Shown here piece after piece: positions 1 to 7,425 of a DNA stretch of 8,406 bases (positions are counted from its first letter, which is position 1; each line of letters opens with the position of its first letter). A model generated the notes under the pieces. The model had not been told where the DNA came from, searched no databases, and saw nothing but the letters and a program-made list of their open reading frames with translations. Made by a program: the position numbers and the translations under genes. The DNA is taken from IMG/VR virus record IMGVR_UViG_3300000301_000148, one strand, 5' to 3'. Source of the stretch: a virus (taxonomy: Duplodnaviria > Heunggongvirae > Uroviricota > Caudoviricetes).

Positions 1-1041
1 ATGAAACACCAAAAAGTTAATATAGTCAAAAAGAATGGTGAATTCTCTTTAAGCCTACTTAGCTTCAAGTTGGTTCATATAAAAAGAACACAAGAGAATA
101 AGAGAAGCATTAATTATTACTGGAATAGCAGGACAAAAGAAGTCATATGTGGCTCAGGTTCATTGCGCAATCATCACAGCATACCATCTATCGCCCATTT
201 ATTTAATTATAAGAAAAAAACATGCGATCTAAGTCGCGAAGAGATACAACTTGGCGACTCCGTATGTGTTTTATTTAATACAACAGCAGCCCTTTTTCTT
301 TTTGGTTCAATTGTTGGTGTAGACAAGCTAAAAAAAGAAACTTATTTTCACATATTGCCTCACGACAAAAACTTTCCATTTCAACGCAATCATGTAATCA
401 AAGTAAAGCACCAAAAAGACAACATTTTTCTTTTACGTGACGGAAAAAATGAAAGATATGAATACATGGCAACAAAAAATCTAGTATTTGCAAAATACCA
501 ATACCAAGTTGAATTTGCCGAAATGGTTATTTCATATATCAAAAGTACGCAGCTCATAATAAATTATGTCTCCGACAAAAATAAAACAATTAATGAAAAG
601 ACGATCTTAGAATGCCATAAAGCTCTTTTTGGCCATATTTATGATTGGGCAGGTGAATACAGAAACCATCCCGTTGTTGTTGGAGATAAAGAGCGACCAA
701 CAATGGAACATAATGAAGTCAAAAAATCATTAAAAGCCTGTCTTAGAGGTTGCACAAAAAAAGAACTTAGCAAAATAAATTCTAAAGCAGAGTTAGTTCA
801 TAAACTAGCTACTCTCCATGCAGAAATCGCATGGATCCACCCCTTTCAAGATGGTAATGGTCGTTCAATACGATTATTTCTTCAGATTGTTGCAACTACT
901 ATGGGTTATGAATTTGATATGGAAAAGCTAGATGGAGATGTGCGAAATAAACGTGCGTACCATTATGCTGTAAGACGCGCAATACACGACAGTAACAGAA
1001 ATCTGATTGCCCTTATTTCAAGGGCAATCAAAGAGCTTTAA
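1..1041 (+). CDS. Fic/Doc (Fido) family protein, 346 aa; candidate toxin or anti-phage cargo gene
   Basis: Open frame of 346 codons in DNA of roughly 30% GC (by eye), which is very unlikely by chance. Canonical Fic active-site motif HxFx(D/E)GNGRxxR is present as HPFQDGNGRSIR at aa 280-291 (nt 838-873). I found no intramolecular (S/T)xxxE(G/N) inhibitory motif in the protein. The ORF begins at window position 1 with ATG, so the true start may lie upstream and the N-terminal ~150 aa has no motif I recognise. Confidence 0.8.
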   Translation: MKHQKVNIVKKNGEFSLSLLSFKLVHIKRTQENKRSINYYWNSRTKEVICGSGSLRNHHSIPSIAHLFNYKKKTCDLSREEIQLGDSVCVLFNTTAALFLFGSIVGVDKLKKETYFHILPHDKNFPFQRNHVIKVKHQKDNIFLLRDGKNERYEYMATKNLVFAKYQYQVEFAEMVISYIKSTQLIINYVSDKNKTINEKTILECHKALFGHIYDWAGEYRNHPVVVGDKERPTMEHNEVKKSLKACLRGCTKKELSKINSKAELVHKLATLHAEIAWIHPFQDGNGRSIRLFLQIVATTMGYEFDMEKLDGDVRNKRAYHYAVRRAIHDSNRNLIALISRAIKEL

Positions 1042-1235
1042 GCAACAGCTACTCTGGTCAGAAAACGTGCAGCCTGCGACATTTTAGACCATGAAGTGTT
1101 GGTAATGTGATTACCTTCCAGAGAAAACGAAGCACGCAGGGAACGATTAACACTTTGTTCAAGTTTTGAACGACGAACAGGCTTAGCACCTGCGTGCCCA
1201 CCTCTTACTTGTATCGTGATAACCTTTTTGCTCAT
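1038..1235 (-). CDS. small basic hypothetical protein, 65 aa; contains SxxxEG motif (possible Fic-inhibitory antitoxin-like helix)
   Basis: ATG at 1235..1233 preceded by a weak purine-rich RBS (AGAGAGA); the ORF track also gives a longer form starting at 1265 with no RBS. Codon usage favours CGT/GGT/GCT/GTT. SFSLEG at aa 36-41 (nt 1113-1130) matches the (S/T)xxxE(G/N) motif of Fic antitoxins. Its stop overlaps the Fic stop in convergent orientation (1038-1041). Confidence 0.4.
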   Translation of the reverse strand: MSKKVITIQVRGGHAGAKPVRRSKLEQSVNRSLRASFSLEGNHITNTSWSKMSQAARFLTRVAVA

Positions 1236-1278
1236 ATTAGTCTCTCTAGTGGTTAAGAACATCATAAATCAACAGCTA

Positions 1279-1295
1279 ATGATAACCATTATCAT
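1279..1295. promoter_or_regulatory. short inverted repeat ATGATAA-cca-TTATCAT in AT-rich spacer upstream of the small ORF
   Basis: 7-bp perfect inverted arms with a 3-nt spacer, read directly from the sequence, lying in the AT-rich region 1236-1418 between the gpA 3' end and the small ORF start. Only a weak operator or promoter candidate. Confidence 0.2.
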
Positions 1296-1395
1296 CTGGA
1301 ATCATCATAGCCGGCTGGCGATTCTACGCCTGATTGTTCATATCTACAACAACTACTTTATACATACAAATCTACTTACCTACCAATAACAGTGT

Positions 1396-4300
1396 TCACA
1401 TCTTCAACTTTTCACCGCNNNNNNNNNNNNNNNNNNNNNNNNNNNNNNNNNNNNNNNNNNNNNNNNNNNNNNNNNNNNNNNNNNNNNNNNNNNNNNNNNN
1501 NCCATCAACTATATACCACCGCCACTCATCAACAACCGGATACGTGAATTTTTTCCCATCATAATTTACGGTCGCGCCACGCGCCAGCGCCTCAAGCTCC
1601 CATCGCTGCGGCCTGATACCGTTCTGAGCAAGGTCAACGCGGATACGGGTAATTTGCATTCTTTCCGACCGGGTCAGTCTGGCCGATGGTGCAATTTCAT
1701 GTGGTTTTAACGGGCTNNNNNNNNNNGGCCAAACATCAGCACCCGGATACATGAATTTTTTCCCGTCATAATTTACGGTCGCGCCACGCGCCAGCGCCTC
1801 AAGTTCCCATCGCTGCGCCCTGATACCGTTCTGAGCAAGGTCAACGCGGATACGGGTAATTTGCATTCGTTCCGACCGGGTCAGTCTGGCCGATGGTGCA
1901 ATTTCATGTGGTTTTAACGGGCTTCCGTTTCTTTGCTGACGATTTGGCATTCTCAGCCCGTGTTTTAATGCGCCCCTGAGCGCCCTCACGACATCCGGGT
2001 CATTCCATTCGATAACACCGTCATCAACCAGATTAAGCACTGCTGCGGCGTGCTCAGAAGGTGTGGGAGCCGGTAACGAAGTATCACCACCGGTGAGTTT
2101 TCCACAGTTATTGACAGGACTCCGAGGCGCGGCGATGCCGCTTTTTAAAGTCAAAGGCTCAACGNNNNNNNNNNNNNNNNNNNNNNNNNNNNNNNNNNNN
2201 NNNNNNNNNNNNNNNNNNNNNNNNNNNNNNNNNNNNNNNNNNNNNNNNNNNNNNNNNNNNNNNNNNNNNNNNNNNNNNNNNNNNNNNNNNNNNNNNNNNN
2301 NNNNNNNNNNNNNNNNNGGCGCGTAAATGCCGACCACTCTCTCGACTTCTTCCTCGTACTCGTTAACGTCATCCGACGGGCTACGGGCGACCCTGACAGT
2401 CTGACAATCGCGCGGGACATTTGCCCCACCCTGCGCGCTGATATACAACGCAAAATCACCACTGTCTGCGGCGGCGCGTGCAGCCTCGACGCGCTCGTCA
2501 AACTCATCAGCAATGCTGACGCCGCGCGGCAATTTGCGTAGTTCACGGTAAGCCCCCATTGTCGGCAGACCAACCGTTTTAAATTGCGGGATGCGCCACG
2601 TTGACGCCCATGCGGTAACAGCCGCCGCAGTGTCTTTCAGCGGCCTGCCGGTATCGTTATCGAGCTGACCATCCAGTGCATAGCCGTCGATGTTTTTTGA
2701 GATGTATTTCGCGATATATCCCGCAGCACCGCCCCGGTTAAGGTGTTTCGCCTGAAAACGGTTTCGCGCGGCTCCTCTTTCGTCGCCATCTTCTTTGAGC
2801 GCATAGCGACGCATGATTTCGATAATCTGGTTACGCTGGCGTGGATTACAAAAAAGCATCATATGCCAGTGCGGCGTTCCGTCGTGGTGTGGCTCGACGA
2901 CTCGCAAACCGTAGACCTGTAAGTCATTATCCTTGANNNNNNNNNNNNNNNNNNNNNNNNNNNNNNNNNNNNNNNNNNNNNNNNNNNNNNNNNNNNNNNN
3001 NNNNNNNNNNNNNNNNATGCCGTGCGCATCAGGCTCCAGATACGGCAGAGATAACGCTGCGCATCCTTTGGATTAAATGCCTCATCATTCCAGCCGTGAT
3101 TAAGCTGGACGGTTTTACTTTCGCCTTTTCCGACCTGACGTGTCGGGTGATACTTTGACGGCGCGGTCAGCGTGATAAACATCCCCACATCACCCTCTGC
3201 GGCGGCGTAACGCTCAATTCCGGCGATGGTGTTCATCAGCTCCATCCGGCGAATTTCAGGATTAGAAATACTGCCCATCACCTTACTGATAAGGTCGATG
3301 CGTTCGCCGGTTTCCCTGTTTTCAAGGTCACACGATTTAAGAAATTCCAGATTTGCCTGGCGGCGNNNNNNNNNNNNNNNNNNNNNNNNNNNNNNNNNNN
3401 NNNNNNNNNNNNNNNNNNNNNNNNNNNNNNNNNNNNNNNNNNNNNNNNNNNNNNNNNNNNNNNNNNNNNNNNNNNNNNNNNNNNNNNNNNNNNNNNNNNN
3501 NNNNNNNNNNNNNNNNNNNAACGCCTCATGCCAGCGCATACGCTGGCCTTTAAGCTGATGAGTCCACCACTCATCGTTAAACAGGCGGGCAATGGCAGAA
3601 TATGCCTGCCTCGTGGTCATCTGCCCTTTACGGTATTTTTTCCAGTAGAGAGGGGAAATATTGAAAGCACGTGCAGCGCCAGCAACATGACCATACAGGT
3701 GATCCTGCGCCTCATCCGTAAACAGCGATTCTTTTTCGCCATGCGCATCCACCCAGGCATCGCAGAGTTCCTCATACATCATGAAAAGCTGCGATGAGAT
3801 ACGGGCGGCAAACTTTTTCAGCTNNNNNNNNNNCGGTATTTTTTCCAGTAGAGCGGGGAAATATTGAAAGCACGTGCAGCGCCAGCAACATGACCATACA
3901 GGTGAGCCTGCGCCTCATCCGTAAACAGTGATTCTTTTTCGCCATGCGCATCCACCCAGGCATCGCTGAGTTCCTCATACATCATGAAAAGCTGCGATGA
4001 GATACGGGCAGCAAACTTTTTCAGCTCCTTGTCATTCATTCCCGGCAGGCGCGCATAGTGGTCACGCTCTGCCAGAAACAGCAACGACGCGTCGGTGTTC
4101 ATTTCATGGCGCTGATTAACGCGCTCAATGCGCGGCCATAAACGACGCTGAAAAGTGGATGTGAGGAAATAAAACCCGTGCACCGGGCTTTTATTGCGCC
4201 GGATGTAGTCATAGCGTGAAGTAAACAGCGAACGCAAAAAGTAAGGCAGGCGGTTAATCGTGGATAAAACACCTTGCACCTGACACATCTCGTCACGTGT

Positions 4301-4426
4301 AAGGGGTCTTTCGCGCCCGACGGCCTCGCGTGGCGCGTTCCATGCATAAGCACCGGTAAACGTCTTACCGGTGCCTGCGGCAAATGCTGACGGTGGGACA
4401 AAACGCCCGGAGGCTTTAACGGCCAT
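1396..4426 (-). CDS. A: P2 gpA-like replication initiation endonuclease (HUH rolling-circle initiator), interrupted by scaffold gaps and duplicated segments
   Basis: Three minus-strand ORF fragments (3818-4468, 2859-3782, 1396-2907) read as one protein broken by N-runs. HUH motif HWHMM at 2857-2871 and a two-tyrosine motif YIAKYISK at 2695-2718 (Tyr codons at 2716-2718 and 2704-2706) are typical of phiX174/P2 gene A type initiators. Likely start is ATG 4426..4424 (MAVKASGRF...), since the track's upstream start is a TTG. The 3' end is uncertain because the 83-N run at 1419-1501 lies inside the ORF. Confidence 0.85.
1527..1923. repeat. near-identical duplicated segment pair flanking a 10-N gap (copies about 1536-1716 and 1743-1923), inside gpA 3' region
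   Basis: Direct comparison: about 181 bp align at an offset of 207 with only a handful of mismatches, and the copies sit either side of the N-run 1717-1726. The bases before each copy diverge (peptide ...YPVVDEWRWYIVD versus ...YPGADVW). Confidence 0.8.
3631..4026. repeat. near-identical duplicated segment pair flanking a 10-N gap (3631-3823 and 3834-4026), inside gpA 5' region
   Basis: 193 bp align at an offset of 203 with about 5 mismatches. Both copies encode MMYEEL(C/S)DAWVDAHGEKESLFTDEAQ(D/A)HLYGHVAGAARAFNISPLYWKKY. The N-run 3824-3833 sits exactly between them. Confidence 0.85.
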
Positions 4427-4912: not shown

Positions 4913-5214
4913 TACCAGCTCCTTTTGTCGTTCAGCTTCTTAAATTCATCAGCGCAATAGCTGGCGATTTCTGTCGTTAATTTCGTCAGTTCATCCACGG
5001 AGGAAATTTGCTTGTGAAATACAGCGCGTTTAACAAGTAAATTGACCACATCAGACAGGAGGTTTAATTCACTCTGATAAATCGCGATAACAGATTCAGT
5101 TATTTCGCGTTTTTCTTTATCAAGACCAAGTTGAATAAGAGACAAATCGCCATTTTTCATAACGGCGATTTTTAAGGCATTGTTCAGTAAAACAACTGAA
5201 CGAGAACAGGACAT
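4912..5214 (-). CDS. hypothetical protein, 100 aa (MSCSRSVVLLNNALKIAVMKNGDLSLIQLGLDKEKREITESV...)
   Basis: ATG at 5214..5212 preceded by a strong SD (GGGGAGGTG). The long ORF in the track (4912-5343) is an artefact of reading through the 10-N gap. A second, diverged copy of this gene lies at about 5309-5697, interrupted by a 110-N gap. Confidence 0.55.
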   Translation of the reverse strand: MSCSRSVVLLNNALKIAVMKNGDLSLIQLGLDKEKREITESVIAIYQSELNLLSDVVNLLVKRAVFHKQISSVDELTKLTTEIASYCADEFKKLNDKRSW

Positions 5215-5781
5215 CAAAGCACCTCCCCGCGAGACAATCCGATGTTGTGAAATTTTTCCGACTCCTGACTGAGCAGCTCGACTATCTCCACGCGGGATNN
5301 NNNNNNNNTCAGCTCCTTTTATCGTTAAGTTTCCTGGATACATCAGCGCAATAACTGGCGAGTTCTGTCGTTAATTTTGTCAGTTCATCCACTGAGGAAA
5401 TTTGCTTGTGGAACACAGCGCGTTTAACAAGTAAATTGACCACATCAGACAGGAGGTTTNNNNNNNNNNNNNNNNNNNNNNNNNNNNNNNNNNNNNNNNN
5501 NNNNNNNNNNNNNNNNNNNNNNNNNNNNNNNNNNNNNNNNNNNNNNNNNNNNNNNNNNNNNNNNNNNNNATAACAGATTCAGTTATGTCGCGTTTTTCTT
5601 TATCAAGACAAAGTTGAATAAGAGACAAATCACCATTTTCCATAACGGCGATTTTTAAGGCGTTATTCAGTAATACAACTGAATGAGAACAGGACATCAA
5701 AGTACCTCCCCGCGAGACAATCCGATATTGTGAAATTTTTCCGACTCCTGACTGAGCAGCTCGACTATCTCCACGCGGGAT
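4913..5781. repeat. duplicated segment pair flanking a 10-N gap (4913-5298 and 5309-5781; second copy contains a 110-N run)
   Basis: Copies align end to end (both begin with TCAGCTCCTTTT and end with CTCCACGCGGGAT) with roughly 93% identity by eye. The 110-N run in copy 2 corresponds to only about 21 nt in copy 1, so gap lengths are not faithful. Confidence 0.8.
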
Positions 5782-5921
5782 AACTCCGCCTTTGTGATGT
5801 GGCGAATCATGGCGTCAAGATGAGAAGAAAAGCGCGTCGCTGCATCGGCCTGTGCTTCGGTTCTGGCCTGTTGCAGCAGTAATGCGTATTTACCGCACTG
5901 ATTTTCAGAAACTGTATGCAT
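5697..5921 (-). CDS. hypothetical protein, 74 aa, early-operon small ORF
   Basis: ATG at 5921..5919 preceded by GGAGAAAG. Its stop overlaps the ATG of the next ORF (TGATG arrangement). No recognisable motif. Confidence 0.5.
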
Positions 5922-5984
5922 GACTTTCTCCAGGCAAAAAGAAGCCCCGCACGATTAAGCGCGTTAAAAACTCTGGTTAATTAT

Positions 5985-6491
5985 TTAATGCAGATATTGC
6001 TCTGGTTTTACCGACGTCAGAATTGTCGGTGCATACTCAAACAGGCTGAATAATTCACGTAATGCACGGAATAAAGCATCACGCCAGTAACATGACTCTT
6101 CATTAATTCGCCAGTATGGCTGGTTAAATTCTTTTTCAGTCAATCCGGCATGCATAAATAAAGTACGACGCTGACTGACTGTTAAAAAACTAATATATGC
6201 ATACTCACTTGCACCGACCTGACGACGTTTTGAGAATGCCCCACGCAATTCATCAATTGCACATACCAGTCGTTCACGTTCGACGTCGTTCATTTCTTCA
6301 AAACGCATCGTTGCGTGACGCTGTTTTAACTGCGCATGAAAGCAAACTGTTAGCCGTTCGCGCTCCATCATCTGATTATAATAATCACATGTATCCTGCC
6401 AGCGAGGAACGGCAAGATGCTTACCAATTATCCGGCGCATAGCTGCTGGCTGTTTTTCAACGAGATTGAGCGTCATCACTGTCATTTCCAT
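5985..6491 (-). CDS. P2 gpB-like replication protein (positional and size-based call), 168 aa
   Basis: ATG at 6491..6489 preceded by a strong SD (GGAGGG at 6498..6493). It sits between cox and gpA as gene B does in P2, and its size is close to P2 B. No catalytic motif recognised, so the call rests on synteny. Confidence 0.5.
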   Translation of the reverse strand: MEMTVMTLNLVEKQPAAMRRIIGKHLAVPRWQDTCDYYNQMMERERLTVCFHAQLKQRHATMRFEEMNDVERERLVCAIDELRGAFSKRRQVGASEYAYISFLTVSQRRTLFMHAGLTEKEFNQPYWRINEESCYWRDALFRALRELFSLFEYAPTILTSVKPEQYLH

Positions 6492-6652
6492 ACCCTCCGG
6501 CTTTTCAGAAAGGTCAGAGCCTTTTTTAACGGACTCTGTTTTTTGGTGCGGATAATGATTCCCTTGCGTCCCTTCCCGTGGGTGATGGTGAAGTCAATCG
6601 CCCTGGGGCTTTCGTTACGCAGTAACTGAGCAATACAACGCGGCTCATTCAT
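6482..6652 (-). CDS. small hypothetical protein, about 56 aa, between cox and the B-like gene
   Basis: ATG at 6652..6650 lies 2 nt after the cox stop (TGATTATG). Its stop TGA (6484..6482) overlaps the B-like start (ATGGAAATGA), suggesting translational coupling. The ORF track's longer form (start 6679) overlaps cox. Confidence 0.4.
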   Translation of the reverse strand: MNEPRCIAQLLRNESPRAIDFTITHGKGRKGIIIRTKKQSPLKKALTFLKSRRVWK

Positions 6653-6654
6653 AA

Positions 6655-6927
6655 TCACAACCCCATCCACAAAAGCCATGCATCACGCTGTTCAACCGGT
6701 CGGTTATAAAACGCCTCACGTACAGCGCGATTAAACTCTGGAATGAAAACCCATTTCTCACCGGCGCGGGCCTTCGGCTTATTTGGATCTCGAAGCTCGA
6801 TAACCGGTAGCTTGTTAGCCTTTATCATTTCTGTAACTGCGGTTTTTGGTTTACCCAATAAATCTGCAAACTTTTCCGCATGTACCGCATCAAGCGGGTA
6901 CTTAATCACATAATCATTAACTTCCAT
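6655..6927 (-). CDS. cox: Cox-like excisionase / early regulator (P2 Cox family), 90 aa
   Basis: KLPVIELRDP...AGEKWVFIP...RD.WLLWMGL resembles the P2 Cox family signature. ATG at 6927..6925 has a good SD (GAGGGT). It is divergent from the repressor gene, as in the P2 immunity region. Confidence 0.8.
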   Translation of the reverse strand: MEVNDYVIKYPLDAVHAEKFADLLGKPKTAVTEMIKANKLPVIELRDPNKPKARAGEKWVFIPEFNRAVREAFYNRPVEQRDAWLLWMGL

Positions 6928-6997
6928 CTATGTTACCCTCATAGGATCCAGCCCCTTAAAAACCGCTTGGAACCGTTTAAGCGGCGCTGGACTCACG

Positions 6998-7031
6998 CCC
7001 GAAAAGGTTCTGGATTAATGACCTTTTCGGG
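6998..7031. promoter_or_regulatory. 11-bp perfect inverted repeat CCCGAAAAGGT-(12 nt)-ACCTTTTCGGG in the cox/C divergent intergenic region; candidate operator
   Basis: Arms at 6998-7008 and 7021-7031 are exact reverse complements. No T-tract follows on either strand, so it is not a typical intrinsic terminator. It lies just downstream of a minus-strand promoter-like element. Confidence 0.35.
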
Positions 7032-7032
7032 G

Positions 7033-7062
7033 AATATAGTCATTAAGTCAGGACTATGTCAA
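7033..7062 (-). promoter_or_regulatory. sigma70-like promoter candidate reading toward cox (early-promoter-like): TTGACA-N18-TATATT
   Basis: On the minus strand there is a perfect -35 TTGACA (7062..7057) and a 5/6 -10 TATATT (7038..7033) with an 18-nt spacer. The predicted start near 7026 falls inside the inverted repeat. Confidence 0.3.
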
Positions 7063-7356
7063 ATGAATATCGCACAGAAATTAAGAGCAATAAGACAATC
7101 GGAAGGGCTAACTCAAGCAAAATTCAGTGAAATCAGCGGTATAGCGTTAGGAACGCTAAAGAATTACGAAGGAGGCCATCAAGACCCTGGCATCCAAGTT
7201 GTGTTGCAGGTCACCAATGCACCTCAGTTCCAAAAATACACACTATGGCTCATGACAGATAAAACAGCGCCGGAAGCGGGACAAATCGCACCGGCTCTCG
7301 CGCACATTGGGCCAGAGTCAACAGAATCCGACCACTCCGCGAAAAGGATTGGCTAA
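7063..7356 (+). CDS. C: P2 C-type immunity repressor (HTH, XRE-like), 97 aa
   Basis: N-terminal HTH (LTQAKFSEISGIALGTLKNYEGG) and C-terminal QFQKYTLWLMT...APEAGQIAPALAH resemble the P2 C repressor family. ATG at 7063 has AGGA 9 nt upstream. It lies immediately upstream of int on the same strand. The longer frame from 6880 is antisense to cox and is rejected. Confidence 0.75.
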   Translation: MNIAQKLRAIRQSEGLTQAKFSEISGIALGTLKNYEGGHQDPGIQVVLQVTNAPQFQKYTLWLMTDKTAPEAGQIAPALAHIGPESTESDHSAKRIG

Positions 7357-7425
7357 CTCTATATAAAAATTACATTTTCACCATTTGCCACCAAGATGGT
7401 GAATACAGCGCCGGAGGGCTTTCTT

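Follow-up and report, generated by a model that had tools for sequence, protein, structure and literature searches.

Our analysis indicates that the first 1,235 positions of IMG/VR virus record IMGVR_UViG_3300000301_000148 (the window, a stretch of 8,406 nucleotides (nt) from a P2-like phage) probably form a self-contained, mobile two-gene cassette of the class I (FicTA/VbhTA) type, carried as exchangeable cargo in the cos-proximal gpQ-gpA hotspot. The toxin gene, fic, occupies positions 1-1041 on the plus strand and, stop codon included, encodes a protein of 346 amino acids (aa) in which an N-terminal beta domain precedes a FicT-like Fic core. The putative antitoxin gene, which encodes 65 aa and is annotated as hypothetical protein WP_016236400, runs towards it on the minus strand at 1038-1235, so that the stop codons of the two convergent genes overlap by 4 nt. 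That the two genes constitute a toxin-antitoxin (TA) cassette is very likely. A topoisomerase target (GyrB/ParE), proposed by analogy with related toxins, is about an even call, and a measurable anti-phage phenotype is a possibility to which we give slightly less weight.

The fic product looks like an intact, catalytically competent enzyme of the AMP-transferase type, as judged from its sequence. The complete HxFx[D/E]GNGRxxR active-site motif is present as HPFQDGNGRSIR at positions 838-873 on the plus strand (aa 280-291, including H280, R288 and R291), exactly where a preliminary description of this DNA had located an intact Fic motif, with H280 as the catalytic histidine. Residues H280, P281, F282, D284, G285, N286, G287, R288 and R291 are invariant in 27 homologues. 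A profile hidden Markov model search, which that description had suggested as a check, matched the 346-aa product to the Fic domain (Pfam PF02661, E 6.3e-17, 62.6 bits against a gathering cut-off of 24), and this is the sole Pfam match in the protein. The gene is labelled 'Fic family protein' in RefSeq and vbhT in some phage records, and the whole family is small, with 32 clusters from Enterobacterales, Vibrionaceae and a few others. The first 146 residues (positions 1-438, plus strand) fold as an all-beta domain, with a beta-meander at aa 1-63 followed by a five-strand SH3-like barrel at about aa 80-146. This domain is confined to this Fic family. The preliminary description had recognised no motif in the N-terminal 150 or so residues and had supposed that they might be a sensor or targeting domain; the first point stands, as the region has no Pfam match, and nothing we found shows a sensor role for the second.

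The fic open reading frame (ORF) is complete, with its ATG at window base 1. The preliminary description had allowed that the true start might lie further left, a concern that is now mostly resolved, as 21 of the 27 aligned sequences share the start at window base 1 to within one residue and just three rows extend further at the N-terminus. An alternative in-frame ATG, used in one phage annotation, lies 45 nt upstream, and the frame is shut by a stop codon 22 nt beyond it; no Shine-Dalgarno sequence was found ahead of either candidate ATG. The possibility of a truncated ORF or of an upstream partner gene was considered and rejected, since nothing but the non-coding cos region and the portal gene precedes fic. 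A strict scan reported no promoter for either fic or the antitoxin gene. The permissive scan, in the matching prophage of E. coli FDN-11 (locus L001), gave a candidate fic promoter, TTAGCG-17-TATAAT with an extended -10 TG, at L001 8904-8932, which is 69-97 nt 5' of window base 1. Its extended -10, a consensus match (TGTTATAAT), lies outside the window, 69-77 nt 5' of the fic ATG; Salmonella phage FSLSP004 retains TGTTATATT (TGTTATA core), the rest of its upstream DNA being unrelated. The composition of the gene sets it apart from its surroundings, as the preliminary description had noted, and that contrast holds with adjusted figures: the ORF has a GC content of 34.4% (28% at third codon positions) rather than about 30%, the remaining window has 48.8%, and a value above 50% applies only to the late region (56.8% in the late genes of the same prophage in E. 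coli FDN-11).

A regular-expression search of all 346 residues found no [S/T]xxxE[G/N] inhibitory motif in the Fic protein, and inhibition must therefore act in trans if the rule described for the family holds (PMC5033356). In class I Fic systems this motif is provided by a separate antitoxin, whose glutamate pairs with the last arginine of the active-site motif (PMC5033356). The partner had been presumed in the preliminary description to lie upstream and out of view, whereas the gene that we propose for this role is inside the window, downstream of fic and convergent with it. Codons for S36-F-S-L-E40-G41, a match to the inhibitory motif, occupy positions 1113-1130 on the minus strand, at the C-terminal end of a predicted helix (aa 22-40). 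In close homologues of the 65-aa protein VNRSLRASFSLEG is invariant, and an alignment of 14 divergent small proteins, with identities as low as 11%, leaves S36, E40 and G41 as its sole invariant columns. The homologues fall into 15 clusters among 5.8 billion proteins. Comparison with FSLSP004 gave 6/5/20 differences at the three codon positions, with 17 synonymous and 9 non-synonymous codon changes, a pattern which indicates that the frame is under purifying selection as a coding sequence. An AlphaFold2 model of modest confidence (predicted local distance difference test, pLDDT, 66.6) has a disordered N-terminus, a helix from aa 22 to 40 ending at E40-G41, a loop and then a second helix from aa 46 to 64. 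The motif of VbhA is likewise found at the C-terminal end of its first helix.

The 65-aa protein had no match in phmmer or profile searches of the PDB and nothing in Pfam, NCBIfam or PADLOC scans, and hhalign comparisons with VbhA and YhfG placed its motif exactly on theirs while aligning the motif alone, at a non-significant probability of 1-7%. Homology with P2 orf91 was considered and rejected, as P2 Orf91 is a 109-aa DUF3850 protein and the small ORF, which shares its slot, has no Pfam match. The first 21 residues (positions 1173-1235, minus strand) carry a conserved strand-like segment of the form hydrophobic-x-hydrophobic-x-hydrophobic-R-G, here ITIQVRG, which is found in all divergent homologues and is absent from VbhA and YhfG. 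This segment is predicted to be disordered in the protein modelled alone, and by beta-augmentation it might attach to the toxin, at the flap or at the N-terminal domain.

The case for a pair also rests on linkage. We inspected every locus encoding a full-length relative of the Fic protein, which gave 32 intact loci (12 from assemblies and phage records, 9 from GTDB species genomes and 11 from IMG/VR). In 32 of 32 a convergent small ORF stands beside fic, ending between -41 and +16 nt from the fic stop, and in every case it carries S-x-x-[L/I]-E-G. One Photorhabdus antumapuensis locus (L014, positions 5001-6026) was left out because its fic frame closes after 97 codons, and may represent a pseudogene or a frameshift. 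The pair travels across very different settings. It is found in P2-like phages whose gpA ranges from 98% down to 38% identity to the E. coli FDN-11 gpA used as probe, with the order portal - fic - small ORF - gpA in all nine P2-type IMG/VR contigs, and also on two non-P2 viral contigs of 93 kb and 47 kb, in a Celerinatantimonas prophage between lysozyme and Dam methylase genes and on a 4.7-kb Rep3 plasmid of Providencia. Plain chromosomal sites occur in Photorhabdus, where a Bax1-I-family gene lies on one side and ABC-transporter genes on the other, in Mixta, beside mqo, and in Vibrio. One copy adjoins an N6-methyltransferase/AAA gene, and in Vibrio hepatarius (L022, positions 2430-3386 and 7348-9978) the pair lies beside a tyrosine integrase gene and a PNP_UDP_1 (phosphorylase superfamily) gene, followed by a GASH (GTPase-associated system helical) gene, a site that is likely to be a conflict or defence island. 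This distribution is that of a selfish, self-sufficient toxin-antitoxin cassette.

Within P2-like phages the pair occupies a well-known position. In E. coli FDN-11 and in Yersinia phage vB_YpM_22 the gene order is terminase - portal - cos region of about 0.6 kb - fic (plus strand) - 65-aa ORF (minus strand) - gpA (minus strand), which bears out the earlier placement of fic in the tin/old position of P2; P2 itself carries old/tin in this slot, in the same orientation as fic. The slot corresponds to the 'TO region', or gpQ-gpA hotspot, of Rousset et al. 2022 (PMC9122126; PMC6823313). The 1.4-kb segment was found in 12 of 5,426 complete E. coli genomes, 1,662 of which carry a P2-type portal, and in only 11 of 50,697 phage records, comprising vB_YpM_22 and its relatives, R18C, STYP1 and FSLSP004 (76%). 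In Yersinia phage P37 (L094, positions 133-4125 and 6410-7417) the int-C-cox-B region is 99.1% identical to that of the window, and the cargo beyond gpA consists of an ASCH protein, a hypothetical protein, a C5 DNA methyltransferase and a 670-aa protein in place of the fic pair. Since it is rare and variable on similar phage backbones, the AT-rich fic gene is exchangeable foreign cargo, as the preliminary description had supposed, and the universal conservation at this position that would have spoken against that view was not seen. Immediately upstream of gpA, P37 has a further insertion, a gene of the PAPS-reductase family, which may mark a second cargo site.

The nearest relatives of the Fic core place the toxin among the FicT-type enzymes. 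By sequence, the toxin is matched best in the PDB by VbhT (E 1.8e-12) and E. coli Fic, and in structure the core has the Fic fold and is closest to VbhT/VbhA, EcFicT/EcFicA and Fic-1/AntF. Among such toxins, VbhT, Fic-1 and FicY AMPylate the ATP-lid tyrosine of GyrB and/or ParE and thereby block topoisomerase activity (PMC7479194; PMC13327609; PMC5033356). The class I prototype, VbhT-VbhA of Bartonella schoenbuchensis, differs from the pair described here in several respects: VbhT has a C-terminal BID domain that our toxin lacks, our toxin adds the 146-aa N-terminal beta domain, and the antitoxin gene here is downstream, convergent and overlapping the toxin stop, whereas VbhA is encoded upstream in one operon with its toxin. 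Compared with VbhA, the antitoxin here carries the additional conserved N-terminal segment, and beyond the motif the two sequences show no significant homology. Gene order and the extra domain distinguish the pair in the same way from EcFicT-EcFicA (E. coli fic-yhfG) and from Fic-1-AntF of Pseudomonas. EcFicT has a degenerate motif, no demonstrated AMPylation activity and a pattern of vertical inheritance (PMC5033356), whereas the protein studied here has a canonical motif and is clearly mobile. Like Doc-Phd of phage P1, the cassette joins a Fido-fold toxin to an antitoxin, Doc-Phd being an addiction module of a temperate phage, yet the Doc-type family model TIGR01550 scored 15.9 against a cut-off of 38.65. 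It shares its slot, and its orientation relative to cos and gpA, with P2 old and tin, which encode unrelated proteins and have demonstrated exclusion phenotypes.

If the pair operates as its relatives do, the 65-aa protein would bind Fic and set Glu40 against the second arginine of the active-site motif, R291, so that ATP would be held unproductively, as in VbhA-VbhT. Should the antitoxin run short, because an infecting phage shuts off the host, because the protein is proteolysed or because the element is lost, free Fic would AMPylate the ATP-lid tyrosine of GyrB and/or ParE in the manner of VbhT, Fic-1 and FicY. DNA supercoiling and decatenation would then stop, and the cell, together with any phage replicating in it, would arrest. 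The outcome would be abortive infection or exclusion, addiction, or both, and a defence or abortive-infection role for the pair is a plausible proposal.

Several observations weigh against parts of this interpretation. The sequence [ST]xxxE[GN] arises once by chance in about 5% of small ORFs, and the case for the antitoxin consequently rests on the exclusive conservation of the motif residues and on linkage. Known FicA antitoxins are encoded upstream and in the same operon as the toxin (PMC5033356), a usual though not defining trait of class I, and the tail-to-tail arrangement here departs from it; we treat this convergent order as a variant layout, one that does not exclude the pair from class I. 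The close structural neighbour EcFicT, being without demonstrated activity, shows that structural neighbours do not fix the target, and the extra N-terminal domain could redirect the enzyme to a different one. With respect to defence, one locus of PDC-S04, a candidate family in the PADLOC library, was deleted in its native E. coli host and gave no defence phenotype.

A rival account, raised in part by the preliminary description, makes fic a stand-alone, single-gene defence effector whose N-terminal domain senses infection and frees the Fic core, in the manner of SoFic or PDC-S04, the small ORF being an unrelated phage gene. The best match of the protein in a defence library is indeed to the single-gene PDC-S04 models of PADLOC (E 2.6e-33, aa 157-344), the PADLOC SoFic model also matches (E 1.7e-13), and the N-terminal domain is family-specific. 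Both matches cover the Fic core only, PDC-S04 being an unvalidated computational single-gene candidate that includes neither the N-terminal domain nor an antitoxin. The validated SoFic family itself is not matched, as its NCBIfam model scored 15.1 bits against a cut-off of 550. SoFic (with AS1) is a validated anti-phage system built, like ours, on a Fic AMPylase toxin, and is said to act by abortive infection (PMC12249575). It belongs, however, to class II, in which the inhibitory helix is part of the protein itself, and it also has a C-terminal domain; the internal helix used by SoFic and other class II proteins is missing here. Even SoFic has been reported to have a small antitoxin, a downstream neutralising protein (PMC12249575), though AS1 has not been reported to carry the inhibitory motif. 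Set beside the accompaniment of fic by the small ORF at all 32 loci, including plasmid, chromosomal and non-P2 sites, with the inhibitory-motif residues kept, these points make a lone effector very improbable. A pure addiction or stabilisation module, one that holds a prophage, plasmid or island through post-segregational killing and has no anti-phage effect, would sit well with the 4.7-kb Rep3 plasmid and the isolated chromosomal sites, with the plasmid-partition genes that fill about a quarter of P2 hotspots in place of defence genes (PMC9122126) and with the PDC-S04 locus that gave no defence. We nevertheless regard it as rather unlikely in this exclusive form, given that the slot is enriched for validated defence systems (PMC9122126) and that some copies adjoin defence-type genes (N6-methyltransferase/AAA; PNP and GASH); addiction and defence are in any case not mutually exclusive.

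Two further accounts assign the pair a different purpose altogether. In the first, Fic would be a virulence factor acquired by lysogenic conversion: on delivery into eukaryotic cells it would AMPylate GTPases of the host, as VopS, IbpA and the Beps do. Some P2-like prophages do carry a cytolethal distending toxin (CDT) in the same region (PMC9122126; PMC6823313), and Bartonella effectors are reported to have evolved from FicTA modules (PMC8401265). Against this, the Pfam matches include the Fic domain only and no secretion or translocation domain (no signal-peptide predictor was run), the always-linked antitoxin argues for an intracellular bacterial target, and the cassette is also present in free-living Vibrio and Celerinatantimonas and in plant-associated Dickeya; we consider a virulence role extremely unlikely. 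The pair might instead be a reversible regulator, an AMPylase/deAMPylase complex that tunes gyrase and topoisomerase IV for the lysogeny-lysis programme of the phage. The Fic-1-AntF complex is reported to act as a deAMPylase on GyrB (PMC13327609), and since the antitoxin gene comes straight after gpA, is read in the same direction and is separated from it by no terminator that the scan detected, antitoxin dose could follow the activity of the early operon. The cassette works outside phages, however, and nearly all P2-like phages lack it, so that it cannot belong to the core programme, which leaves such regulation very unlikely.

An extension of the cassette reading would give meaning to the conserved tail-to-tail layout and to the N-terminal parts of both proteins, as a switch between self and non-self with a possible second lock. 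In the P2-like phages examined, the antitoxin gene is always directly downstream of gpA on the same strand. Induction of the prophage, through derepression of the early operon, would raise the antitoxin along with antisense transcription into fic and so shield the phage's own replication, while a foreign phage, by halting transcription of both host and prophage, would run the antitoxin down and unleash topoisomerase poisoning. In this scheme the second lock, or a phage-sensing interface, could be built from the beta domain of the toxin and the strand of the antitoxin, both N-terminal and both specific to the family. We know of no such lock or interface in FicTA systems, and view this extension as distinctly unlikely.

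The terminator scan detected no terminator between gpA and the antitoxin gene, which makes read-through from gpA possible; transcription may start there or at the gene's own promoter, for which the permissive scan alone gave a weak sigma-70 candidate, TTGTAG-17-TAGAAT, at 1321-1349 on the minus strand, in the 176-nt gap after gpA. The same terminator scan identified a 14-bp hairpin at 1002-1032 (minus strand; dG -18.9, z -4.0), which lies 6 nt past the antitoxin stop, within the 3' coding end of fic, where the Fic C-terminus (LIALISRAIK) is encoded. Its form suggests a terminator of minus-strand transcription, and it may be a terminator or RNA-stability element common to both convergent transcripts. 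Pairing is kept in the Dickeya and Photorhabdus homologues, apparently via changes on both arms (judged by eye). Across the family, the hairpin is kept in the E. coli, Salmonella, Dickeya and Photorhabdus clade and absent in distant members, and we therefore do not count it as a defining part of the cassette.

Parts of this locus have been recorded before. A Fic-like ORF was noted in the TO region in the R18C paper (PMC6823313), and 'Fic + hypothetical, WP_021522894 + WP_016236400' appears, uncharacterised, in Table S5A of Rousset et al. 2022 for the P2 hotspot, the pair not being among the systems described as tested in the main text (PMC9122126). Our literature searches, which included accessions and phage names, returned no functional study of the pair and none naming the small ORF as an antitoxin. 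We read the pair as a new architectural variant of class I FicTA, set apart by the additional domain at the toxin N-terminus, by an antitoxin gene that converges on the toxin gene and overlaps it, and by an antitoxin family that lacks annotation. As TA pairs, Fic toxins active against gyrase and topoisomerase IV have been studied in detail, while debate continues over what they do in nature. At about 1.3 kb this cassette is compact and clonable and, lying in a hotspot of phage defence that is among the best documented, gives an opportunity to ask whether phage exclusion is a function of class I FicTA modules. Type II toxin-antitoxin systems do not usually have such a conserved convergent and overlapping layout, which may hint at control at the RNA level. 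Because Pfam, NCBIfam and PADLOC have no entry for the small antitoxin family, current pipelines for annotation and for finding defence systems record only a solitary Fic gene here, and the practical gain, though modest, is a better annotation of the 'Fic + hypothetical' hotspot cargo.

The remainder of the window is a P2-type early region, in which Pfam matches identify gpA, DUF5405, TraR-like, DUF2732, gpB, Cox, C repressor and integrase genes. The gpA replication gene, placed at 1412-4426 on the minus strand by mapping to the E. coli FDN-11 locus L001 and represented by a Pfam Phage_GPA fragment, is disrupted in this window by runs of N and by duplicated segments. The first 1,418 bases, by comparison, are clean and 99.9% identical to E. 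coli prophages. Eight N runs interrupt the window, at 1419-1501, 1717-1726, 2165-2317, 2937-3016, 3366-3519, 3824-3833, 5299-5308 and 5460-5569, and the flanks of several map to overlapping parts of the reference prophage (for example, 1502-1716 and 1728-2164; 3520-3821 and 3834 onward; 5310-5459 and 5570 onward). Given this overlapping mapping, the fragmented or duplicated gpA and early-operon ORFs are artefacts of scaffolding or masking rather than real duplications. Four complete E. coli chromosome records match the segment at exactly 2295-3694, as does vB_YpM_22, in which gpA occupies 1-2283, and thus seem to have a common first base close to gpA; records in this E. coli set include, for example, NZ_CP031706.1, NZ_AP024126.1, NZ_CP128584.1, NZ_CP061530.1 and NZ_CM142783.1. 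One E. coli record begins exactly at the fic ATG, as the window does, and these shared start points look like an effect of record rotation and not of biology.

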